IMG/VR virus record: IMGVR_UViG_2548876959_000011
DNA: 51,013 nt
Reading direction: 5' to 3' (one strand)
From: a virus
Taxonomy: Duplodnaviria > Heunggongvirae > Uroviricota > Caudoviricetes
The notes under the pieces are model-generated. The model worked only from the letters and a program-made list of their open reading frames with translations. It ran no database searches and was not told the origin of the DNA. Shown in pieces: positions 3,516 through 50,962 of the stretch (positions are counted from its first letter, which is position 1; each line of letters starts with the position of its first letter). The position numbers were made by a program, and so were the translations under genes.

Positions 3516-3871
3516 AGCACCACGTCCTGTGTGATAGTTATATCCCTGATACGAATGGATATTTTCAACTTATCAAAAGCATCTCCCTCGGCTACTGACA
3601 AGCCAGAAATCGGTATGTCAGGTAAATCTACCGTCAGTTTTTGCAACAGCATTGCCTCAACCGCAATTTGAACATGCGACAAGTTGGTCGGTTCGTGTTT
3701 AAACTGCGGTAAAACATTGCCCCATGACGGATCTCCGTATACCTCACCCTGATAAGTGTTTAGCCACTCATATAAACGAGCGCCCCAGGCCTCCTCCTGG
3801 GACTCATACGTTTTTACGCCGGATAACTCCAGCGTCAGTAAAGGATCAATTTCATTATTGTTGGCCATCAA
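3512..3871 (-). CDS. small tail/baseplate protein
   Basis: 119-aa ORF overlapping the sit stop (3868) and the bplA-like start. Confidence 0.5.
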   Translation of the reverse strand: MMANNNEIDPLLTLELSGVKTYESQEEAWGARLYEWLNTYQGEVYGDPSWGNVLPQFKHEPTNLSHVQIAVEAMLLQKLTVDLPDIPISGLSVAEGDAFDKLKISIRIRDITITQDVVL

Positions 3872-6800
3872 TCAACTCTCGCGTAGTCATTCATCAACGG
3901 ATCATCAATTGACAGTGGCACCGTGCGCATAACGCCCGGTTGAGGCGTGCTGACCTTTACGACAGTTCCCTGGCCTTTCGCCGAGTCTTTAGTGTGCTCT
4001 TCAATCCTGGCAAGCAATGAGGTCATCTGCGCAAACAGCCGCTTCGTTTCACCATCAAGTGAAACGGTATTATCAGCCAACTGCATTGTCGGCTTGGCAC
4101 CGGAGCCGCCAAGGTCACTAATAACCTGTCCGTCTATCTGCATACGACCGGTTGGTTGCTGCAAATCGTTGGCGGCAGTCGTCACCTGGGACGTGGAGGC
4201 TGGTTCAGGCGCATTATTTTTCCGCATCCCCGGCGAGTTGCGGAGTTTATCAAATAGCCCATCAATCCCCATTTGTGCGCCGAGTTGGTCAAAGTAACTT
4301 GAGTTGCTGGCCACCGGACGCGCCTCTTCAACTGGCATCGGAGTATCAACATACACATTGCCAGCTGCTGTTGCGGTCCCCTTCCCTCGTGCACGTTCTT
4401 CGAGCGTTCCCTGAACGACTTCCCGACGCATACCCCGGCCATTCATGAATTTGTTGACCAGATCGTTAACGCCAACAGCATTGCCAATTTTGTCTACCAG
4501 ACCGCCTTTCTCAAACGGGCTATCACCAGGGGTAAACGCCAGGCCAGTAGACTGATCGATAACAGCGTTATCAGGCAGTGGTCCCCTCACTCCATATTGC
4601 GCCCCACCCTGTGCTCCTGCTCCAGGTGTATAGATTTCACCACCTAAATAGCGAGCACGATGAGTATTGACCTTGATCGCGTACTCACGGTTTTCTTTCG
4701 ATAAGTCACCTGTGCCTTTTTTCCACTTATTGATAGTGCCAAACCCAGCATTATATGCAGTGATGGCCTCGTTTAAGTCTCCATTGGCTTGCTTCAGATA
4801 TTTGCTCATGAGAAGAGCCGCAGCTTCTGCCGATTTCACAGGATCAAACGATTCACCTTCAGCTAAGCCAGTCTCTTCACGAGCAATCCCCGTGAACTGA
4901 AACATCCCCAGAGCACCGGTTTGGGATTTTGCATACGGATTACCACCAGATTCAGTTGCAGCAATCGCGTAAAGAGTGCCTTCTGGAAGACCGTATTTAT
5001 TCTCTAGTTCGGCAAAATACGGAGCCAACTTATCGAGATTTGCCTTACCTTCAGCGCCAAGACTTCCGACTTTTACATCCAAGTTGCCATTGTTGTAGGT
5101 ATCCGCAGCTTTCTGAATGTCATTCCTGGTGCCAGTGGTATTAAGCGACGATGATGACGAGCTATTTTGACCAATAGCTTTATCAATTTTCTGCAACGCG
5201 CTATTGCCCGTTTCTACGGCATTTGCATTGATAATCTGATTAGCAGTTTCTTTAACTGTTTTATTGCTATCTTTCGCCGTGTCCAGTGCCGCATTTATCA
5301 CGCGGGTAACAATATTAGTCTGTTTGGCATCGGATTCAGTTTTAGAATCAGATGTCTCCTGGTGGCTATTAACCGGAGCTTTTAACTCTGGAGTGATTTC
5401 TTTCGCATTAGCCTCGCCGATCGGATTGGGTATTTTTGATACAATCATTGCCGCAGGGGTATTTTTAACGGCATCAACCGCTGCATCTAATGCTTTACCT
5501 GGTAAATTTTTAACCCCATCCCAAATATTACCAGCCGCCTCTTTAATGTGTTTCCCTGGGTTCTTAATGAAATCAATTGCACTATCAATTGCATCACTGA
5601 AAACCTGTTTCAGGTTATCGACAGTAAAGAAGTCTTTGATGGCATCCAGCTTTTCAAGCAGCTTATTAGATGTATCGCTAAACCATGCTGAAACAGCATC
5701 ACCAATCTTTGCTGTGTAATCATCGAACTTGGTAGAAATGGTGTCGCCAAGGTTAGAAATATATGTTTCTAAGTTGGTAATCCCACTATCAATGGCATGG
5801 GCAATACTTTCCGTCGAAAATGATTGCAACATATTGCCGATATCCTCAAATCCAAGTGATTTGAGAACCTCACCAATGGCGCTGCTAATACCAGATACCA
5901 GTCCCCCCATATCAAGAATATTAGCTAACGTATAAGCGGCTTTTTGCTGGAATGATGGATCTTGTCCTGATTTAAGCCCAAACGCTCGACGTTGCGCTTC
6001 TGTATCATTCCAACCGGTTACCGCATCATAAATACCTCCAACCACTGTGCCGACTAGGGGAATTGCGCGTAACGCCCCTTTACCAACTGCCTTTAATCCA
6101 AGTTTACCTGCTGCCCGGGCAGCCAAATCTCCGCCTTCATGGGCGAGAGTCTTCTTACCACCACCGCGTAGCATTCCTACAAGTTTCTTTGCCCCCAGAG
6201 CGCCAAAAGCGAGTGCTCCAGCTTTTTTCAGCATGCCACGCCCCATTAACAACGACGCGACGCCACCGGCCCCCTTCCCTAACAGGCTAAATAGTTTGGA
6301 CAGCAAGCCGCCCTTCTTTTTCCCGGTGTTTTTGGCTATCTGATCAAGGGCGCTGAGAATCTTGTCATTGCCCTCTTTAATTTCGCTGGTCTGCTCCTGA
6401 AGTTCCTGAACCGTCCGTTTTTGGGTGTTAACCTGAACGACATCGGCACTATTTTGCGATTTACGCCTAAAAAAACCTTTTCTACGGCTGTTATCGTCAT
6501 TGCCACGAATCACATCGGCAATAGACTTTCTGGCACCATTAAGCGATCCGCCAACTTCTTTTGATATCCCGCCAAGCTCCTTCCCTGCTGCCCACAATGG
6601 ACCTGCAACGGCATAACCTAACGCATCGACAGCACGAGTCTCTGAAGGGTTACCTATGCCTTCAGCTACTTTTGACAGTTTTTTTAATAAACCTGATTCA
6701 GCATTTAGACGCTCATCATCCTCTTTTCGCCTGGCCTTTTCTGCTCGTTCAGCACGGGCATCTTCCGCTGCGGCCTTACTCCCTGACTTTCCAATAAAAC

Positions 6801-13575: not shown

Positions 13576-14421
13576 ATGCTGGCTAAAGTCACTTTCCTGA
13601 GCTGTATAACGATGAGCGATTTTACTTTTTCTGGCTATGAATTGGCCTGCTTTGTAACACACTCCGGTCTATCCCGTAGCGCCGGGCATATCCTGTCGCA
13701 ATGTGCAAATCTCGCGGCAACAACCAGTGAATACTTCATTCACAAGCCTCACCGCCTGATCGCGGCAGAAACTGGTTATAGCCAATCAACCGTCGTTCGT
13801 GCATTCCGTGAAGCTGTAAACAAAGGAATTCTATCTGTAGAGATTGTTATCGGCGATCACCGTGAACGTCGCGCTAACCTGTACCGGTTTACACCATCCT
13901 TTTTGGCCTTCGCACAACAAGCCAAAAATGCGCTGATTGAAAGCAAATTAAAGATCTCTTCAGCGGCAACCAAGGTTAAAGCTGTTCTCGCTAAGACATT
14001 GGCTTTATTTAATTTTTTATCCACACCCCCATGTCAAAATGATACCCCCTCCCCCTGTCAGGATGACGTGGCAATAAAGAATAAGAAGTCACAAATTAAA
14101 AAAACAAAAAGATCAGTTTCCGGCGGTGCCGAAACGACCAGCCTCAAAAAACTGACTTCATGGATCGCCGAGGCAAAAGCAAAGGCTGACAATCTGCGGT
14201 TATCCAAAAAACGCGCTCAAAAACATGAGTTCAAGCAGAAAGTAGAGGCGGCAGCGCGGAAATATGCTTACCTGAAGAACAAGCGTTCTCCTGATATTGG
14301 CGGGGTATCAAACTTCGATAATTTGCCGCATTGCATGACGGTAAACGAAGCTCTTAATGCGGTTTTAGCCAAAAATAAAGATAACGAACAATGGGGTATA
14401 CCGGCAGGATTTAGAGGGTGA
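13576..14421 (+). CDS. repL: RepL lytic replication initiator
   Basis: 281-aa ORF immediately downstream of kilA; HTH-like segment SQSTVVRAFREAVNKGIL; the lytic origin is expected within this gene. Confidence 0.65.
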   Translation: MLAKVTFLSCITMSDFTFSGYELACFVTHSGLSRSAGHILSQCANLAATTSEYFIHKPHRLIAAETGYSQSTVVRAFREAVNKGILSVEIVIGDHRERRANLYRFTPSFLAFAQQAKNALIESKLKISSAATKVKAVLAKTLALFNFLSTPPCQNDTPSPCQDDVAIKNKKSQIKKTKRSVSGGAETTSLKKLTSWIAEAKAKADNLRLSKKRAQKHEFKQKVEAAARKYAYLKNKRSPDIGGVSNFDNLPHCMTVNEALNAVLAKNKDNEQWGIPAGFRG

Positions 14422-14471
14422 TAGATTGCTCTAATCTGGAGTCACCTGGCGTTTTCAGTTTGAGGTCGGAG

Positions 14472-14717
14472 ATGCAATCTGATTTTTTACAGTTAGCGAT
14501 CGCTTTTGCAGGATATGTTTGTATTGGCTTCTGTGTATACATGATCAGCCGAAAAATGCTTGTCGATATCGACCGCAAAGAACAAGCAGAGGAGATCTTA
14601 GTATGGATTTTCTTTGGCGCGGTCTGGCCATTAGGGATCATGTTTGCTGCAACATTTCTTCTGATGTGGATATTCACCCTTCCAGGTGATTTCTATAGAA
14701 AAAAAGCCAGACATTGA
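14472..14717 (+). CDS. small membrane protein
   Basis: ATG at 14472 with GAGG RBS inside ORF 14418..14717; two hydrophobic helices. Confidence 0.45.
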   Translation: MQSDFLQLAIAFAGYVCIGFCVYMISRKMLVDIDRKEQAEEILVWIFFGAVWPLGIMFAATFLLMWIFTLPGDFYRKKARH

Positions 14718-14794
14718 TACAATCGTTGCGGGTGCTTGAGGCTATCTGCTTCAGGCATTACCCGAAAAGCAGATAGAAGAAAGCCCCAGATAAC

Positions 14795-14865
14795 ATTACG
14801 CGTCCTGCAAGACGCTTAACATTAATCTGAGGCAATATCTATGCTTAGCATACGTAGATTAGCCT
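14795..14865 (-). ncRNA. sok: putative Sok-like antisense RNA (approximate)
   Basis: Inferred from hok/mok architecture; reverse-strand TTGACC -35-like element near 14866-14871 and hairpin gcgtc/gacgc at 14800-14815. Confidence 0.3.
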
Positions 14866-15047
14866 CTTACCGACCAAAAGGTCAAGGAGAAGCAGGCTAT
14901 GAAGCAGCAAAAAGCGATATTAATCGCTCTGATCGTCATCTGTTTAACCGTCATTGTGACGGCACTGGTAACGAGGAAAGACCTCTGCGAGGTACGAATC
15001 CGAACCGGCCAGACGGAGGTCACTGTCTTCACAGCCTACGAATCTGA
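14841..15047 (+). CDS. mok: Mok-like reading frame overlapping hok
   Basis: 68-aa ORF in a different frame, starting upstream of hok and ending near the hok stop, as in hok/mok/sok loci. Confidence 0.5.
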   Translation: MLSIRRLASYRPKGQGEAGYEAAKSDINRSDRHLFNRHCDGTGNEERPLRGTNPNRPDGGHCLHSLRI

Positions 15048-15054
15048 AAGGTAA
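14899..15054 (+). CDS. hok: Hok/Gef-family type I toxin (51 aa)
   Basis: Hand-translated: MKQQKAILIALIVICLTVIVTALVTRKDLCEVRIRTGQTEVTVFTAYESER, near-identical to the HokD/Gef family as recalled; AGGAGA RBS; below ORF-track cutoff. Confidence 0.85.
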   Translation: MKQQKAILIALIVICLTVIVTALVTRKDLCEVRIRTGQTEVTVFTAYESER

Positions 15055-15127
15055 GAGACCTGGCGGGGAGAGATCCTCGCCACTCTTCGTGTGTCAGGTA
15101 TCCTCAATGCACCCTTTCCTCTCCAAA

Positions 15128-15155
15128 TAAAAAAGCTCCCGAAGGAGCTTTAAAA
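15128..15155. terminator. bidirectional rho-independent terminator
   Basis: Stem aaagctcc/ggagcttt with cgaa loop, flanked by A-run and T-run; sits between convergent hok and the leftward structural operon. Confidence 0.7.
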
Positions 15156-15170
15156 TACAAGGGATGACTC

Positions 15171-15680
15171 TTAATCCCACTCAATCCAGTTGTAGACGAT
15201 ACGAAGTGACGGGCGCACAGCGGCAGTCACATCTTCGGTACTAAAGTCGATTGCATCACTGTAGATTTTGCAGTCCAACATTTCAATTGTTGTAGCAGCT
15301 TTTGTCACAGCGTTAACCCCGGAAGATTTGGATTCAGGGGTAGCAGCCATCGTGATATCAACATAGTCCTTCGCCGCAATGCGATCTTTAATGAACTGAA
15401 GAATATCGCCTTCGATAGTCTCCACGCACTGGACCTGGATTTCCCCTGAGTTTCGAATTGGACCGTGCTGGTTGAACTTCACACCATTCGGACCATAGTC
15501 CTCCACATCCTCGCGGGTCATTTCAGGAATTTGCGACGTGCGAACCAGTACGCTGATATCTTCATGGCCTGCAAAAGTGAGCTGGAATTCAGAAGATACC
15601 AGTCGTTCGCCTTTGGCCGCGTTGGCAGTATAGCGGCCCTTAATAAATTTACGGTTTCCCTTAGTGTTATTGTGCCCCAT
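15171..15680 (-). CDS. virion structural protein (possibly tail tube-like)
   Basis: 169-aa ORF at the distal end of the leftward head/sheath operon. Confidence 0.45.
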   Translation of the reverse strand: MGHNNTKGNRKFIKGRYTANAAKGERLVSSEFQLTFAGHEDISVLVRTSQIPEMTREDVEDYGPNGVKFNQHGPIRNSGEIQVQCVETIEGDILQFIKDRIAAKDYVDITMAATPESKSSGVNAVTKAATTIEMLDCKIYSDAIDFSTEDVTAAVRPSLRIVYNWIEWD

Positions 15681-20624: not shown

Positions 20625-20712
20625 CAAGGTGAAATCGTGGCGATTTCACCTTGAAATTTTAGATGGATTTACTTTAAAAACAGTAGGTTAATAGTGAAAT
20701 TTGAATGGCGAA
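20625..20712. promoter_or_regulatory. parS: parS partition site
   Basis: ParB heptamer boxes gtgaaat (20629), atttcac (20643), gtgaaat (20694); hexamer boxes tggcga (20638, 20706); A/T-rich IHF-like region between them. Confidence 0.75.
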
Positions 20713-20715
20713 AGT

Positions 20716-21717
20716 TTAAGGCTTCGGCTTTTTATCGAGGCTCTTTCTAAGGATATGCCCAATCATCCTGTCGAGTTCTTCCTGTAGCTCTTTTGAAAGT
20801 CGATTAAACTCATAAGAAAATGCACGGCCTTTCACGCGTTTCCTTGCAAAGCGATCCTTGTCCTCAAATTTCCATAATTCAGTAACTACGGACTTATCTT
20901 TAGAACCTTTATCCGTGAGTAGTGAGGCTTCCTTTGTTATCAAGCGCAGGATTTTATTTTTAACTTCATCTTCGGCCATTTCTTCAATGGATAAGATGTC
21001 GTTTATTTCCGGGGATATGTTTTGAATAAGCTGATCAAACTCTAAATTCTTGTTCCCCATTTCGTCGCCAACAGCACAAAGCGTTTTGTAGTCCGAAAAG
21101 GTTAATTCCGACTGCACAGGGAAAAGGGCGACTAATTCTTCCGGAGCACTCGCTGCCTGGAGAGCACGCGTGACCTTCGCCTGAGACAGCCCTTCTTTGG
21201 CTGCAATATCCTTCTGACTCATCCCATCATTTTTCATTCGCATCAAACGCAGACCTATTTCTCGAATGCTGTGCTGCAATGCTGTCTGAACGTCTTTCGC
21301 TAAATTTTGCGCTTCCTGAACGCTGATCTCCTGGTCCGTGACTAAAACCCGCAACCCTACGTTCTCTAAGATGGCAGAAGCTCGACGCCGGGAACCATCC
21401 AAAATTTCAATTTTCCCTGTAGCCCGTCTAACACCTATTGCAGGGTAAAATTGCTGATGCTTAATAGTGCTTCGGATACTTTTTAATGATTTTGGCGTAA
21501 GAGATGCCTGGTCACGCCCGTTGTTATGCTGATCAACAAAGGTATCGCTTTCTACCTGGTTCGGAGGTATTACCTCTTCAATAAATGTGGCCTGGCGACC
21601 AGTTGATAACTTGAATACCTGCTCGACTCGATCGCCAGAGGCTGAAGAACTATCAAATCCGCTTAATATTGAAGGATTAAGGGTTCGCCCAATTGTTGGT
21701 CTGTTTTTCTTTGACAT
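20716..21717 (-). CDS. parB: ParB partition protein
   Basis: 333-aa ORF downstream of parA and adjacent to parS; N-terminus MSKKNRPTIGRTLNPS... recalled as P1 ParB. Confidence 0.95.
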   Translation of the reverse strand: MSKKNRPTIGRTLNPSILSGFDSSSASGDRVEQVFKLSTGRQATFIEEVIPPNQVESDTFVDQHNNGRDQASLTPKSLKSIRSTIKHQQFYPAIGVRRATGKIEILDGSRRRASAILENVGLRVLVTDQEISVQEAQNLAKDVQTALQHSIREIGLRLMRMKNDGMSQKDIAAKEGLSQAKVTRALQAASAPEELVALFPVQSELTFSDYKTLCAVGDEMGNKNLEFDQLIQNISPEINDILSIEEMAEDEVKNKILRLITKEASLLTDKGSKDKSVVTELWKFEDKDRFARKRVKGRAFSYEFNRLSKELQEELDRMIGHILRKSLDKKPKP

Positions 21718-21733
21718 GGGGGGTTCTTACTCC

Positions 21734-22930
21734 TCAGTTAGATCTGATAAATTCAATACGGTCAAAAACTGCTTTAGCAAAATCTTCCGCGGCAATTCGC
21801 GCGTTCTTCAATGCATCAGCACTACCAACATACGTTGCCGGGTTAGCTGAAATAACAGTGTCAAAAGACTCGCCGCAACGTTCAAAACCGTCAAGGCGAG
21901 GGAGGACGACATCGAGCATATCCCCACCGAACACTTCTTTAGCCAGGCTATGGCAATACTTATGATCTGCCTTGTTACTCAACTTGGACATAAAACCAAT
22001 GTTAGTCGCAAGCTGGCACTCGCAGCCTTCATCCGAAATGAGTTTTACCAACTCAGGAAGGCGGGCAACGTATTTAAGCGATGAGTGGAAATCGACAGTT
22101 GCTGGCGGCAGAGGTGTAAACAGTATATTGGCCGAGGCCAAAGCATTTTTCAGGAAGGCGTCAAGGTGAGGACCACTATCAACGAGGATAAAGTCATAAT
22201 CGCTCTTCAGCTTATCAATCACATTTTCTTTCAGGACAGCATGGATGTTCTGACCCGGTAGATGCTCATTGCACAGCTCTCTCCAATCGGATGCAATAAA
22301 GGCATCGTCAATCGACGCAGGCATAACGTCAACCCCAGGTACAACAGAAGGAACAATAAACTCCTCTAACAGCTCTTCACGGCTTACATTCTGCAACATA
22401 GCCTGTGCAGATGTTGCGTTTACGATACCAATAGAGTGTTTATGGCTTAAAAACATCGTTGCGGAAGATTGCGGATCAAGGTCAATAACCAGAATCCTTA
22501 AATCCTCCATAAGAAGATGAGGGTGAGCACGCATTGCATGCGCCAGAGAAACCGTCGATACAGTTTTTGACACACCGCCTTTAAGATTGGAGATGAAAAT
22601 CACATACGCTTCGCTGTAGCGATCCCGGTATTTTGGCACTCCGCGATGTTCATATATGTCAATGATGTTCTGAATTGACATCGCATATTTCATTGAAGAG
22701 CCAGCAGGGCGTTTATCGAAAACATAACCCTTTTCTTCCATTTCACTTACGGCATAGTCAACGTTCGCTCGAGTCAGTAGAGGCAATTTTGCCAGTGCCG
22801 CTTTCGCATAGACCTGGTAAAACTCGTTCGCGTGTAGCTCATCCTTTTGCAACTGTACTTGTTCAGTCAGAACATTGAGCATTCTGTTTGCTCTTTGAGC
22901 AACCTTGTGAAGCTGGCTGGAATCACTCAT
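21734..22930 (-). CDS. parA: ParA partition ATPase
   Basis: 398-aa ORF; deviant Walker A KGGVSKTVSTVSLA; N-terminal extension typical of type Ia ParA. Confidence 0.95.
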   Translation of the reverse strand: MSDSSQLHKVAQRANRMLNVLTEQVQLQKDELHANEFYQVYAKAALAKLPLLTRANVDYAVSEMEEKGYVFDKRPAGSSMKYAMSIQNIIDIYEHRGVPKYRDRYSEAYVIFISNLKGGVSKTVSTVSLAHAMRAHPHLLMEDLRILVIDLDPQSSATMFLSHKHSIGIVNATSAQAMLQNVSREELLEEFIVPSVVPGVDVMPASIDDAFIASDWRELCNEHLPGQNIHAVLKENVIDKLKSDYDFILVDSGPHLDAFLKNALASANILFTPLPPATVDFHSSLKYVARLPELVKLISDEGCECQLATNIGFMSKLSNKADHKYCHSLAKEVFGGDMLDVVLPRLDGFERCGESFDTVISANPATYVGSADALKNARIAAEDFAKAVFDRIEFIRSN

Positions 22931-23203
22931 CGAAAGACATCCTTTATGCTGTATTTTTGAATTTAATTAAAAATGCTGCATAAAATAATAATGTATGCGT
23001 AGATGCTTGTACATAGCATTCTCTGCATGCTTACTCCTTTGCCAAGTGTGTCACAACATGCTTTGGCATCCTCCACGCATAAAGGACGCGGATTTCTTCT
23101 ACGTTCAGGTTGTAGCCTGAATCATTTTGGTGATTTCCTGCTTCAATGGGCAGCCAAGCTTCACTCTCTATCAACTGGTGAGAACGGCTTGCCCGGCAGC
23201 TTC

Positions 23204-46402: not shown

Positions 46403-47131
46403 ATGAAAGGCGAAGTGAAAGAGCGCGGCATGATTTTCAACGATGAGATGGTCCGGGCCATCCTCGAAGGAAGGAAAACGCAGACGCGGCGGATAATGAA
46501 AAATCAGCCTGCGGAAGTTGGTCCAGAAGCACCAGTGATGGTTAGAAAAATTGGTGCAGGTTTTCAGTGGTACGGGGCTGATGGTGTAAGCAGTGTTTTC
46601 AATTGCCCATTTGGTATCGTCGGCGATCGAATTTGGGTTCGTGAAACATGGGCGATATTAGGCAATGAGGATGGTTGCAGTGTGGACTGGAACGACAACC
46701 TTTGTCGTGGCGATGAGAAGAACGCAGCAAGGATTTATCGGGCCAGTTGCGAGCAAAAACCTGGTGATTACGGCTTATGGTCGATACCCGATGATGCCGA
46801 CTGGAAACCTCACACTGTGAATGAAAAGTTTGATGGTGGGTGGCGTCCATCAATTCACATGCCGCGATGGGCATCACGCATTCTGTTGGAAATTACCAAC
46901 GTGCGCGTTGAACGGTTGAACGATATCAGCGAATGCGATGCAAGGGCTGAGGGCGTTCCGCCTGCTGGAAGTTTGCTTCCTGATCACCCGGGAACATTCC
47001 TTACTCCCAAGGGGGATTTCGCAATGGCCAAGGTTGCGTTCCAGCGCCTATGGGAATCCATCTATGGTGAAGAAAGCTGGAACGCTAATCCCTGGGTGTG
47101 GGTAATCGAGTTTAAGCGCATTCAGGAATAA
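46403..47131 (+). CDS. hypothetical protein, possibly ASCH-like
   Basis: 242-aa ORF; N-terminal MIFNDEMVRAILEGRKTQTRR. Confidence 0.45.
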   Translation: MKGEVKERGMIFNDEMVRAILEGRKTQTRRIMKNQPAEVGPEAPVMVRKIGAGFQWYGADGVSSVFNCPFGIVGDRIWVRETWAILGNEDGCSVDWNDNLCRGDEKNAARIYRASCEQKPGDYGLWSIPDDADWKPHTVNEKFDGGWRPSIHMPRWASRILLEITNVRVERLNDISECDARAEGVPPAGSLLPDHPGTFLTPKGDFAMAKVAFQRLWESIYGEESWNANPWVWVIEFKRIQE

Positions 47132-47214
47132 ACCGTGAGTATGCATCAAATCGTCAGTTTTTCAGGTGGACGAGCATCGGCCTGTCTCGTTCATCTGTTC
47201 GAAGAGGTAGTGGC

Positions 47215-47418
47215 ATGACAATCGTAAAAACCCATACCGGCACCGTGATCACCAAAGACGGGCCGCAGGTAAAAAAACTGCACCAAACAGAGCGGATGTG
47301 GGTCGTCGGCAAAAATGAGTTTTACCACAAAGATACCGGACGCCGCCACTTTGCAGAAAATACGCGCCGTCGACTGCTGTTAGACACCATCAAGCCTATC
47401 GAGGTGAAGCATGTTTAA
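47215..47418 (+). CDS. small hypothetical protein
   Basis: 67-aa ORF. Confidence 0.4.
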   Translation: MTIVKTHTGTVITKDGPQVKKLHQTERMWVVGKNEFYHKDTGRRHFAENTRRRLLLDTIKPIEVKHV

Positions 47419-47650
47419 ACAGAACGAAAAAGCTATCGCTCAAATTGCTGATTATATCCCGCGTGCGTGCCGGGGTATGCAGTTGCAGGAAGCCAAAGCG
47501 CGCCTGGAGAAAAAAATTGCGCTCTATATTGATGACGGCTGTGATGCTGCCGTTCTTAACGCGGCGTTCGCACCAGCTCTTAACAGTCATACTCGGGAGT
47601 CTTTTTTTTCGTGCATCGAAGCGCAACTCCGCAAAGGAGGCAGCCAGTGA
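47411..47650 (+). CDS. small hypothetical protein
   Basis: 79-aa ORF ending ...LRKGGSQ, overlapping the next start. Confidence 0.4.
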   Translation: MFKQNEKAIAQIADYIPRACRGMQLQEAKARLEKKIALYIDDGCDAAVLNAAFAPALNSHTRESFFSCIEAQLRKGGSQ

Positions 47651-48348
47651 TCGAAATTAATTACCGGGCACTGCGTGAGATAGCAAAACAGGCAACACAG
47701 GGCGAATGGGTCGCATTTATTTCGCCGGGTACTGGTACGTATGCGGTGCATACGCCCGGTGATAAACGATGTGAAGACGTTATCAAATGGACCGGCTTTG
47801 ATGGACTGAAAAACGCAGAGAACAACGCTCGTTATATTGCCGCATTCAACCCAAAGGTTGCACTGGAGCTACTTGGTGAAATTAAGCGCCTGGAGGACAC
47901 AAATATTGATGCTATGTGCCGAATAGCACCGCTTGAGACTAAGCTCGCGGCTCTGGTGGCAGAGAACGCTGGGCTGAAACACGCAATGGCTGTAACTCTT
48001 GATCATGTGTCGGTCACGGATGCAGGGCAGGCCGGAGTTGCTGCAATGATTATCAACGATGCCCTACACCACAGCGAAACTCCAGCTACCGATGCTTTTC
48101 TGGCGGAAATTCGTGCGGAAGCACGCAACGAGGGGATTAACTATACCGCCAGCCGTCTTGCTGCTGCGTTCAATCACGGATTTATCAATACGTCTTTGCG
48201 TGAAGTTTTCGACGTTACGCGCATGATTCTGTCAGCGAAAGAAGAGTTGGCTAATGAACCGTACCCGATTGATGGCCTGTCCGGTGAATATGCGGAGAAA
48301 TCCCTTGAAGAATGGGCGGAACAGATTCGCAAAGGAGCTGACAAGTGA
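47647..48348 (+). CDS. modular coiled-coil protein
   Basis: GTG at 47647 after AAAGGAGG; N-terminal module VIEINYRALRE and ETPATDAFLAE module are shared with downstream ORFs. Confidence 0.5.
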   Translation: MIEINYRALREIAKQATQGEWVAFISPGTGTYAVHTPGDKRCEDVIKWTGFDGLKNAENNARYIAAFNPKVALELLGEIKRLEDTNIDAMCRIAPLETKLAALVAENAGLKHAMAVTLDHVSVTDAGQAGVAAMIINDALHHSETPATDAFLAEIRAEARNEGINYTASRLAAAFNHGFINTSLREVFDVTRMILSAKEELANEPYPIDGLSGEYAEKSLEEWAEQIRKGADK

Positions 48349-48755
48349 AGAAGATGATTTTTGTCGCGGCATTGTTGGTGAATATCCAACAAGTGCATGC
48401 TTCAGCAGCTATTGTAGCCTCTACCGCCGCGACTACGGCTGCTGTAGCTGCTGCGAACTCTGCGAATATCGCAAACCAACAGGCACAGCGTGCTGCTAAT
48501 GCATCAGCCAGCGTTCACCCAATCACCATTAAGAGCAGTAAGCAAAATCTGGGATTCATAACGTGCGGCACGCGTTCTAATGAAGCTGTAGGCTCTCTGG
48601 GATGTACGGTATATGGCGATAGTGAGCGCAGAGAAATTCCATGGAAAACGTGGCCCGGATACGTTCTCGGATCGAAGCTCCCTGCCAGCTACGAAGTAAA
48701 TGCCGTATCGTTTGATCACTATAACGGCGTGGCAACTGTCTATTTTACATACTGA
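48345..48755 (+). CDS. secreted protein
   Basis: 136-aa ORF; signal peptide MKKMIFVAALLVNIQQVHASAA. Confidence 0.5.
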   Translation: MKKMIFVAALLVNIQQVHASAAIVASTAATTAAVAAANSANIANQQAQRAANASASVHPITIKSSKQNLGFITCGTRSNEAVGSLGCTVYGDSERREIPWKTWPGYVLGSKLPASYEVNAVSFDHYNGVATVYFTY

Positions 48756-48763
48756 GGCTCCGC

Positions 48764-49417
48764 ATGAAATTCTCCAAATTTTCTGAGTTGGTGAATCGTA
48801 TTTTGTTGAATCGTATTTTGTCCAACAACCACAGCCATCGTCGCGATATGGATGTAACGATCGTTGTTCATTCGCCTGGCAGCATTGGTTCAACACCTTC
48901 AGTTGAGGTTCAGTCAATTCATGCTGGTTTTGATTGGGATTCCGGGAAAGTGCTTATTTTCCCAGCACAGCCACTGACCACGCTAACACCAGAGCAGGTT
49001 GCTGATATCACTGATAGTGTGCGCAAAGGTCAGTCTTGGCACGCATATCAGGAATATAAAAAGCATAAAGAGCAGTTGGAAAAATTGTCGATTGAACTGG
49101 ATGCTGCAAAACAGCGCGTAGCAGAACTGGAGGCCAGTCGCGTGACGCTGGCGGAGGAGAACTCGTGGCTGAAGATGCTCATAGAAGATCATGCTGGTTG
49201 TACTGCTGTCTGCCCAAATTGCTCTCATGAAGAACCCAGTGAAACAGACGACATTGTTTGGTCTTACCGTTCACGGGAAACGCCAGCCACCGATGCTTTC
49301 CTGGCTGAAGTCCGGGCGCAGGGCGTGGAGATGTTTGCGGAGTGTGCATACACGCTTGAACATCATGATCACGCAGTAGCCTTCGCCGCTGAGCTTCGCA
49401 AAGGAGGCAACCAGTGA
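48764..49417 (+). CDS. modular coiled-coil protein
   Basis: 217-aa ORF; C-terminal ETPATDAFLAEVRAQ...ELRKGGNQ module. Confidence 0.5.
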   Translation: MKFSKFSELVNRILLNRILSNNHSHRRDMDVTIVVHSPGSIGSTPSVEVQSIHAGFDWDSGKVLIFPAQPLTTLTPEQVADITDSVRKGQSWHAYQEYKKHKEQLEKLSIELDAAKQRVAELEASRVTLAEENSWLKMLIEDHAGCTAVCPNCSHEEPSETDDIVWSYRSRETPATDAFLAEVRAQGVEMFAECAYTLEHHDHAVAFAAELRKGGNQ

Positions 49418-49932
49418 GCGAAATTAATTACCAGGCACTGCGTGAGGCGGCAGAACGTGCAACTCCAGCAATGGAACGCCTGTTAATGTTGCCAGTTGAT
49501 GATGATTTGTTAAGTGAACAGGAACTTAAAGATTACGGTGTGGATATTGATGCGCTCAACGCCTTCAAATTTCTGACCGGACCAGAAACCGTGCTGGCAC
49601 TGCTGGATGAACGGGAAAGAAACCAGCAATACATCAAACGCCGCGACCAGGAGAACGAGGATATTGCGCTAACGGTAGGGAAGCTGCGCGTTGAGCTTGA
49701 AGCAGCAAAATCAAAACTCAACGAGCAGCGTGAATATTACGAGGGAGTAATCGCGGATGGAAGTAAGCGCATAGCAGAACTGGAGGAGCGGGAAATACTG
49801 CTCCCGGAACGTAGCAGCATGCTTCATCGAACAGATTTTCACGATGATTACCAAACGGTAATGGCATACAAAGTTTCTGAAGTCATCGCTGCAATCCGCG
49901 CCGCAGGCATTCGCATCAAAGGAGGTGAGTAA
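49414..49932 (+). CDS. modular coiled-coil protein
   Basis: GTG start after AAAGGAGG; N-terminal SEINYQALREAAERAT module paralogous to the 47647 ORF. Confidence 0.5.
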   Translation: MSEINYQALREAAERATPAMERLLMLPVDDDLLSEQELKDYGVDIDALNAFKFLTGPETVLALLDERERNQQYIKRRDQENEDIALTVGKLRVELEAAKSKLNEQREYYEGVIADGSKRIAELEEREILLPERSSMLHRTDFHDDYQTVMAYKVSEVIAAIRAAGIRIKGGE

Positions 49933-50107
49933 TGCGTGTGGCATGTATCGGCTTGTTACCGTACCCGACTCGTTTTTGGGCTTCTGCGCTAATTGCAAAG
50001 CCGTATGTCCTGATGGCTGACAACATCATCCCGGCACCAAAGCGCCGCCATACCGGTATTGCAGCGGCACGACGAGCAGCAAAGAGACGCAGGAGAGCAA
50101 AGCGATG
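49932..50107 (+). CDS. small basic protein (58 aa)
   Basis: Hand-translated; Arg/Lys-rich C-terminus; stop overlaps next start (ATGA). Confidence 0.3.
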
Positions 50108-50282
50108 AAAAACCGTAAGGCAAAACGACTTTTTTTACAGCGACCTGTGCGTGTGGTGGAGCTGGTTATTAGCAACCATAAGATAGCGGTACTCCATCCA
50201 TTTGGTCAGGTGGCTTTTGCCGCAAAGCGTAAGCCTACTGCGTCACAGAACAGGCGGAAGAAAGGGTACGCTGTAAGATGAA
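50106..50282 (+). CDS. small basic protein, MKNRKAK paralog 1
   Basis: Hand-translated MKNRKAKRLFLQRPVRVVELV...; ATGA overlap with the next ORF. Confidence 0.35.
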
Positions 50283-50466
50283 AAACCGTAAAGCAAAGAT
50301 TCTGTTAGTTCGTAGAAACGCTCCTGGCGTCTGGCAGTGGGTGAGACTCAGCAACCGACGGATGGGGTTGATGAAATATTACGGGATGATGGATTGTGGT
50401 TTTTGCAAAAAGCCCAGCGCGGCGCAAAACCGCTGGAAAAACCACTTGCGCACTAAAGGAGAGTGA
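50278..50466 (+). CDS. small basic protein, MKNRKAK paralog 2
   Basis: 62-aa ORF MKNRKAKILLVRRNAPGVWQWV... Confidence 0.4.
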   Translation: MKNRKAKILLVRRNAPGVWQWVRLSNRRMGLMKYYGMMDCGFCKKPSAAQNRWKNHLRTKGE

Positions 50467-50467
50467 T

Positions 50468-50962
50468 ATGGCGTTAACACACCGCGAACTCTGTCAGATT
50501 GCGTATAAGTTCCTTAAGCGCAACGGGTTCAAGGTTTGTTTTCATGACCGCTTTATAGCTGTAACCAGTACCGGAGAACAGCCAGATGCTATGGGATTCA
50601 GAAATTCAGCATCATGCCTGATAGAAGCGAAGTGTTCTCGTGCTGACTTGTTAGCAGATAGAAAAAAGCGTTTTCGTAAAAATCCGTCTCTTGGAATGGG
50701 CGACTGGCGATTCTTTATTAGTGAGCCGGGAATTATTTCAATTGAGGATTTACCACCTGGCTGGGGATTACTTCACGTTGTTAACGGAAGAGTACGGAAA
50801 GTACATGGGTGGCCCAAGGGTAATTGCTGTTGGGGTAATCCTGACGATAAGCCATTTACTGGAAATAAGCAGGTTGAATGCGATTACATGTTATCTGCAT
50901 TAAGGCGCATGGAGTTGAGAGGGCACCTTAATGAAATATATGACGGTGTAATTGTTAGGTAA
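50468..50962 (+). CDS. putative PD-(D/E)xK-fold protein
   Basis: ATG at 50468 after AAAGGAGAG RBS (ORF-track entry 50396 extends upstream in frame); PDAMGF...CLIEAKCS matches D...ExK pattern. Confidence 0.4.
   Translation: MALTHRELCQIAYKFLKRNGFKVCFHDRFIAVTSTGEQPDAMGFRNSASCLIEAKCSRADLLADRKKRFRKNPSLGMGDWRFFISEPGIISIEDLPPGWGLLHVVNGRVRKVHGWPKGNCCWGNPDDKPFTGNKQVECDYMLSALRRMELRGHLNEIYDGVIVR

Follow-up and report, generated by a model that had tools for sequence, protein, structure and literature searches.

The P1-like phage-plasmid examined here carries, in one of the variable regions of its genome, what we read as an intact and canonical hok/mok/sok type I toxin-antitoxin cassette of the hokD/hokW lineage (14730-15116), which likely stabilises the plasmid; we give this reading as a whole a probability of roughly 0.8. 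All coordinates refer to the window, that is, the entire 51,013-nucleotide stretch of the IMG/VR record IMGVR_UViG_2548876959_000011. The system type has long been known and this particular allele has already been annotated publicly, and the locus is in that sense already known; public records tag the toxin only, leaving sok, the mok frame and the mRNA elements unannotated. A preliminary description had proposed a hok-type locus at this position from inspection of the sequence, and on its two main points, a toxin with Hok similarity and a locus that reference P1 does not hold, the comparisons below bear it out.

The cassette occupies a variable slot of a P1-like genome

The host element is identified as a P1-like phage-plasmid (Punavirus) by its structural, immunity and replication genes, which are collinear and homologous with those of P1. 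With the exception of five replaced segments, window positions 32-47049 match P1 32589-81394 (96.6-99.2% identity), and a C4 antisense RNA with its a1/b1 targets (Rfam scan) and three tRNAs are present in the window. The partition region (20661-23200) has no megablast match to P1 and encodes a ParB of 333 aa (PF08775) and a ParA of 398 aa (HTH_54 and AAA_31 domains), a par allele diverged from that of reference P1. Short replacements without a P1 match were also seen at 28852-29280 and 32116-32602, one inside dmt and one near tciA, and a 3.9-kb block of unannotated ORFs at 47050-50957, again without a P1 match, stands where P1 has pmgT onwards (variable region 8).

The hok locus is flanked by repL and bplB. 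In a local blastn comparison with NC_005856, the match to P1 breaks off at 14435 and restarts at 15129, leaving a differing segment of 693 bp (14436-15128, no strand assigned) that contains an open reading frame, ORF81, and the hok/sok cassette. According to the annotation of NC_005856, the counterpart of this segment is P1 51586-53411 (1,826 bp), which carries rlfA, rlfB and pmgF, and the suspicion that hok is missing from canonical P1 was therefore correct. The slot itself, between repL/Op55 and the bplB terminator, is common to both genomes, whereas its content is wholly unlike, with three genes in 1,826 bp in P1 and ORF81 plus hok/sok in 693 bp here. The rlfA-rlfB-pmgF region is among eight regions reported as highly variable in P1-like phage-plasmids, where it is variable region 5 (PMC9603915).

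The left junction of the segment falls within the C1 operator Op55, at which the window reads ATTGCTCTAAT followed by CTGGAG and P1 reads ATTGCTCTAAT followed by TATAAC. In Op55/Orlf (14425-14441), the first 11 bases (ATTGCTCTAAT) are retained and the last 6 are swapped. Because Op55 is partly replaced, C1 control of transcription downstream of repL may be altered. The right junction lies immediately 5′ of a hairpin at 15132-15151, and here the preliminary description, which had counted a terminator at 15128-15155 as part of the locus, has to be revised. A terminator scan found a stem of 8 bp whose T-run is confined to the minus strand, the hairpin is identical in reference P1, and, given this minus-strand T-run and the P1-shared sequence from 15129 on, we assign it to the P1 backbone as the terminator downstream of bplB. 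It may, in addition, act as a weak stop for read-through on the plus strand.

The two contents of the 693-bp segment are independent parts. ORF81 (14472-14717, plus strand), which lies between repL and hok and outside the toxin-antitoxin cassette, is called by PGAP in identical plasmids and matches phrog_3772 (E 3e-54), while Pfam and NCBIfam searches with it returned no match; its product is a small hydrophobic protein, probably located in the membrane. Within the phage collection it was found in P1-like phages only, including a homologue in SJ46 that is 44% identical. We considered that ORF81 might have arrived together with the hok cassette and rejected this, since prophage hok cassettes occur without ORF81 and a diverged homologue exists in SJ46. 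A hairpin with a T-run (14674-14699) was observed at the 3′ end of ORF81, just upstream of the hok -10 element, and two of the related loci (L007 and L009) have a 137-bp deletion within ORF81.

The toxin gene and the overlapping mok frame

The hok gene (14899-15054, plus strand) encodes a peptide of 51 aa (MKQQKAILIALIVICLTVIVTALVTRKDLCEVRIRTGQTEVTVFTAYESER) and is preceded by a Shine-Dalgarno sequence, AAGGAG, at 14882-14887. As had been proposed, the product is, by profile similarity, a toxin of the Hok/Gef family: it matches PF01848 (HOK_GEF) over profile positions 2-42 of 42 (76.3 bits, cut-off 22; E 1.3e-21), and phrog_251, 'MokW-like host killing', with an E-value of 1.9e-31. The NCBIfam models for the Hok subfamily and HokA also match (E 1.7e-13), with scores that are under their curated cut-offs (50 versus 73 bits). 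Amino-acid identity to Hok of plasmid R1 is 42% (E 6e-16), measured with an R1 Hok query that matches thousands of hok genes on plasmids at 100% identity.

The overlapping, out-of-frame mok-like ORF was likewise found where it had been described (14841-15047, plus strand). It comprises 68 codons and matches phrog_37205 (E 1.9e-20), and an NCBIfam HMM search with mok gave no match. Its Shine-Dalgarno sequence, GAGG (14828-14831), is situated 9 nt upstream of the mok start, in the 3′ arm of a leader hairpin, sokT. Both frames are well kept among relatives: of the 61 unique homologues, all have an intact hok, and 60 have an open mok of 68 or 70 codons.

Architecture of the predicted hok mRNA

A putative hok promoter at 14696-14723 (plus strand) consists of a -35 element TAGAAA (14696-14701), a 16-bp spacer and an extended -10 element TGaTACAAT (14715-14723). 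In a consensus scan this candidate has 9 of 12 consensus matches in addition to the TG, and its predicted +1, G14730, coincides with the first position of the match to the Rfam model described below. Since homology to prophage hok cassettes starts at 14718, only the -10 element belongs to the cassette; the -35 element comes from the end of ORF81.

From this start, a full-length hok mRNA of about 387 nt (14730-15116, plus strand) is predicted, its 3′ end being placed by analogy with R1. The mRNA probably ends near 15116, just past the fold-back inhibition element (fbi), as does the 398-nt mRNA of R1; in the R1-type locus used as a control (L089), the R1-type mRNA spans 228-625 (398 nt) and ends directly after fbi. 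The RNA 14730-15116 has a minimum free energy (MFE) of -154 kcal/mol and a z-score of -8.85, and none of 100 shuffled sequences folds as well.

The elements expected of a hok mRNA are found in this fold. The tac element (GGGUGCUUGAGG, 14730-14741, plus strand) forms the 5′ end, is complementary to the ucb box and pairs with fbi (CCUCAAUGCACCC, 15102-15114, plus strand), giving a helix of 12 bp with a single bulged base (U15108) in both the MFE and the centroid structures. Such a long-range pairing of the mRNA ends had been suggested in the preliminary description, and the tac-fbi helix stands, with the 3′ element (cctcaatgcacc) at 15102-15113 instead of 15103-15114; the count of 12 bp takes in G14730 and C15114. 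Further along the leader, the sokT hairpin (14783-14833, plus strand), which reproduces the terminator hairpin of Sok in sense orientation, is delimited by the Rfam structure alignment and the MFE helices. The ucb box (CUCUUACC, 14864-14871, plus strand) is paired in the full-length fold with the dcb box (GGUAAGAG, 15050-15057, plus strand), which overlaps the hok stop codon. In the same fold, the mok start region (14841-14858) pairs with 15084-15101, and the hok Shine-Dalgarno and start region (14886-14907) pairs with 15023-15045.

Duplex energies are -21.5 kcal/mol for tac-fbi and -15.9 kcal/mol for tac-ucb, compared with -17.0 and -17.7 kcal/mol, respectively, in the R1 control. MFE folds of 3′-truncated hok RNA gave no tac-ucb refolding, neither here nor in the R1 control, and because the R1 control fails likewise, folding of the truncated RNA is uninformative on this step.

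The predicted Sok antisense RNA

The preliminary description had also predicted a Sok-like antisense RNA opposite the mok start, and had pointed to an Rfam scan as a check. In a scan of the whole window, the Rfam model RF01794, named 'sok', matches 14730-14904 on the plus strand (114.3 bits, gathering score 59; E 2.4e-25). The consensus of this model opens with a tac box (GGGUGCUUGAG) and closes at the hok AUG, which is the sense of the hok mRNA. Because RF01794 is written in the hok sense, its plus-strand match identifies the hok leader, and sok itself by complementarity only. Automated annotation that trusts the strand of RF01794 would, therefore, mislabel the hok leader as Sok.

The minus strand does contain the features of such an RNA. 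The sequence from 14855 to 14775 folds with -31 kcal/mol (z = -5.3) into a hairpin followed by CUUUCUUCU, and the sokW gene annotated in phage 933W maps onto approximately 14779-14849 of the minus strand. The predicted Sok RNA (14777-14849, minus strand) would be about 70 nt long, with ends placed by inference, and would consist of a single-stranded 5′ tail of 16 nt complementary to the mok start, a long hairpin (14833-14783) and a U-rich tail. A putative sok promoter (14856-14885, minus strand) was located by visual inspection together with positional homology and comprises a -35 element TTGACC (14885-14880), an 18-bp spacer and a -10 element TAATCT (14861-14856). It aligns in position with TTGCGC-17-TATCCT of the R1-type locus (alignment A1, see below). 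The generic promoter scan did not list this promoter, having missed it because its -10 element matches the consensus at only 3 of 6 positions.

Conservation of the RNA structure

Hok proteins 94-100% identical to that of the window are encoded by 80 loci in viral contigs, and in most of these the nucleotide homology extends from 14718 or 14727 to 15114, that is, from the -10 element to fbi. We aligned the 61 unique mRNAs with the R1-type locus (alignment A1, 62 sequences) and projected the MFE structure of the window onto the alignment. Standard pairs account for 93.0% of the pair cells across the 62 sequences, versus 35-42% with the partners slid by 1-3 columns, a percentage that is favoured by taking the structure from one aligned member. 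This choice weighs less on the compensatory counts: changes on both sides occur at 18 pairs, as opposed to 8.6 in shuffles and 4-7 with slid partners. Among the homologues, pairing amounts to 99.1% in the tac-fbi helix and to 89% in the ucb-dcb helix (helix 6). Variation in tac-fbi is limited, in the 62 sequences, to the bulged base and G-U wobbles, and the bulged base, which may be T, C or A, is the most variable base of fbi among the 61 homologues.

Small ORFs are common, and a sceptic might hold that the ORF and the pairings have come together by chance and that there is no toxin-antitoxin locus here at all. This is refuted by the Pfam (E 1.3e-21) and Rfam (E 2.4e-25) matches, the fold z-score of -8.85 and hundreds of conserved homologues, and we regard it as next to impossible.

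Variability within the cassette is highest at 14834-14848, a 15-nt stretch comprising the 5′ tail of the predicted Sok RNA and the target of this tail at the start of mok, with a mean column entropy of 0.82 versus 0.16 overall and 19 variants among the 61 sequences. Its partner in the full-length fold, 15085-15099, was also observed to be variable, with compensatory changes.

Kinship with prophage and plasmid hok loci

The closest known systems are hokW/mokW/sokW of the Stx2 phage 933W and the hokD cassettes of lambdoid and Rac/Qin-type prophages, which share 87-90% nucleotide identity with the window from 14718 or 14727 to 15114 (85-90% for the hokD/hokW lineage), have the identical order of elements (tac, sokT, mok, ucb, hok, dcb, fbi) and encode Hok proteins that differ from the window's by 1-5 residues. 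Those cassettes sit in integrated prophages, whereas the one described here is located in a plasmid prophage. The window is further distinguished by a Sok target of its own (14834-14848), a sok promoter spacer that is longer by one base, a mok of 68 rather than 70 codons, a Hok C-terminus ending in ...YESER and the -35 element supplied by the end of ORF81. On these sequence relationships, the cassette is to be placed as a derivative of the prophage hokD/hokW lineage and not of the hok of conjugative plasmids.

In comparison with R1 hok/sok (parB), the prototype that was defined by experiment, represented here by the R1-type locus L089, the architecture of the full-length fold matches that of the window, including the 5′-3′ fold-back, and AGCCUCUUACC (ucb), both Shine-Dalgarno spacings and the position of the sok promoter are common to the two. 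The tac/fbi core has changed on both sides, from GGCGC/GCGCC in R1 to GGGUGC/GCACCC in the window, with pairing preserved. Differences lie in a shorter leader hairpin I, a longer Sok hairpin with a 16-nt insert (Rfam alignment) and the longer tac-fbi helix of 12 bp. No R1-type hok was found by blastn in 'distant' mode against plasmids, the DNA being too diverged; R1-type loci were instead fetched by tblastn with R1 Hok, and L089 was used as the control. Two other candidates, L087, with IS150 in the leader, and the Klebsiella locus L088, with no recognisable tac box, were dropped.

The phd/doc system of P1 is presumed to have a like role, namely post-segregational killing that stabilises the plasmid prophage. 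It is a type II protein-protein system at another genome position, outside the window, and has neither sequence nor mechanistic kinship with the cassette described here. P1-type plasmids normally already carry phd/doc for addiction. Homology between the window and P1 finishes at P1 81394, before phd, and the window stops short of the expected phd/doc position.

Frequency, annotation and disrupted relatives

The prevalence of the arrangement was assessed with a 1-kb stretch (14300-15300) that covers both junctions. It is found with a coverage of at least 80% in six phage records, one of which (MH422554) labels the ORF MokW. PLSDB contains 216 plasmids with the arrangement, and of 5,426 complete E. 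coli genomes 199 carry it, the identity being 99-100%. Many of these plasmid and genome matches are 100% identical and carry the PGAP label 'hokD: type I toxin-antitoxin system toxin HokD'. In PLSDB, 80% or more of the hok cassette is present in at least 449 records, and partial matches to the 1-kb query occur in 4,748 of the 5,426 genomes, these being mostly hok cassettes of 80-95% identity and mainly chromosomal. Many of the hok loci on E. coli chromosomes are known to be inactive.

The hok/sok cassette is, in short, missing from canonical P1 and routine in wild P1-like plasmids. The idea of an acquired cargo, as put forward in the preliminary description, accordingly holds in that the segment is not in reference P1, but the cargo is not unusual, given the 216 plasmids and 199 genomes. 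In the literature that could be searched, no description of hok in P1-like phage-plasmids turned up, and the matches concerned hok on plasmids of another kind that these strains also carry; for pAvM_E1649_9, a plasmid with 100% identity, this literature mentions only a 'P1 addiction system'.

Not all relatives are intact. In about one third of the sampled plasmid matches, IS421 (IS4 family, 1,338 bp) has inserted into a hairpin of the hok 3′ UTR and splits fbi from hok. The target duplication of 11 bp, GGGAGAGATCC, corresponds to window 15066-15076 and is seen at 3849-3859 and 5198-5208 of one such locus (L090); the window itself is uninterrupted at this site. In phage vB_EcoM-673R5 and several plasmids, only 14718-14864, comprising sok and the hok leader, is left. 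In stubs of the vB_EcoM-673R5 type (L005 1-2062), ORF81 and the sok/leader part were seen to be kept and the hok coding sequence swapped for unrelated DNA, and none of these stubs is annotated. With IS421-split or stub forms being common and reference P1 lacking the locus, the hok/sok locus is evidently dispensable.

These disrupted relatives, together with a reference P1 that does without the cassette, are what one would expect if the window contained a neutral or decaying hok copy that hitch-hikes, as most chromosomal copies of hok do, and is kept only by a recent clonal spread of the P1-like lineage. We consider this unlikely, as all regulatory elements and both frames are intact in the window, compensatory changes maintain the RNA pairing across homologues and, of all states seen in the sampled plasmids, the intact one is the most frequent.

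Proposed mechanism and role

We infer the transcription, processing and toxicity of hok and the killing phenotype from family membership, and on this basis the cassette would probably operate on the model of hok/sok of plasmid R1, as follows. From the weak promoter, a long-lived hok transcript of about 387 nt would be made, in which the 5′ tac element would be locked to the 3′ fbi element, and the mok start and ucb paired with 3′ sequences, such that neither translation nor binding of Sok could take place. Slow trimming at the 3′ end would then strip off fbi and allow tac-ucb refolding, which would render mok, and through mok hok, translatable. In cells that carry the plasmid, the unstable Sok RNA of about 70 nt would pair with the mok start region and lead to decay of the hok mRNA. 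Upon loss of the plasmid prophage, Sok would decay first and Hok would depolarise the membrane. The likely benefit of such a system is the stabilisation of a low-copy plasmid prophage by post-segregational killing, and a second possible benefit is the exclusion of phages that arrest transcription in the host.

This second benefit may even be the principal one. If the cassette were mainly an anti-phage device, a lytic phage would stop transcription, Sok would decay and Hok would kill the cell before progeny are released, a sequence of events that the same hok/sok anatomy would also fit. The lineage is, moreover, almost wholly prophage-borne (Stx, Rac and other lambdoid prophages, 85-90% identical), a setting in which plasmid loss is irrelevant, and the site, rlfA-rlfB-pmgF, is a variable accessory region (PMC9603915). 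An anti-phage role is, however, compatible with post-segregational killing, and both could apply. Pecota and Wood reportedly observed, in 1996, that R1 hok/sok partially excludes T4; the exclusion effect reported for R1 hok/sok is modest. We see a mainly anti-phage function as a real but rather improbable option, and favour plasmid stabilisation as the likely role of the cassette.

More speculatively, hok/sok alleles may play a part when P1-like plasmids compete with resident prophages. The variable stretch 14834-14848 could then set private specificity groups, and perhaps the sok/leader stubs could serve as anti-addiction antidotes against hok-positive relatives, whether these are co-resident or incoming. 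We think this scenario quite improbable.

Wild P1-like phage-plasmids, then, commonly carry a second, RNA-based module for addiction or exclusion that the laboratory reference P1 is without. The intact, IS421-split and sok-only forms of the locus provide a natural series with which the role of hok/sok in a plasmid prophage can be probed.
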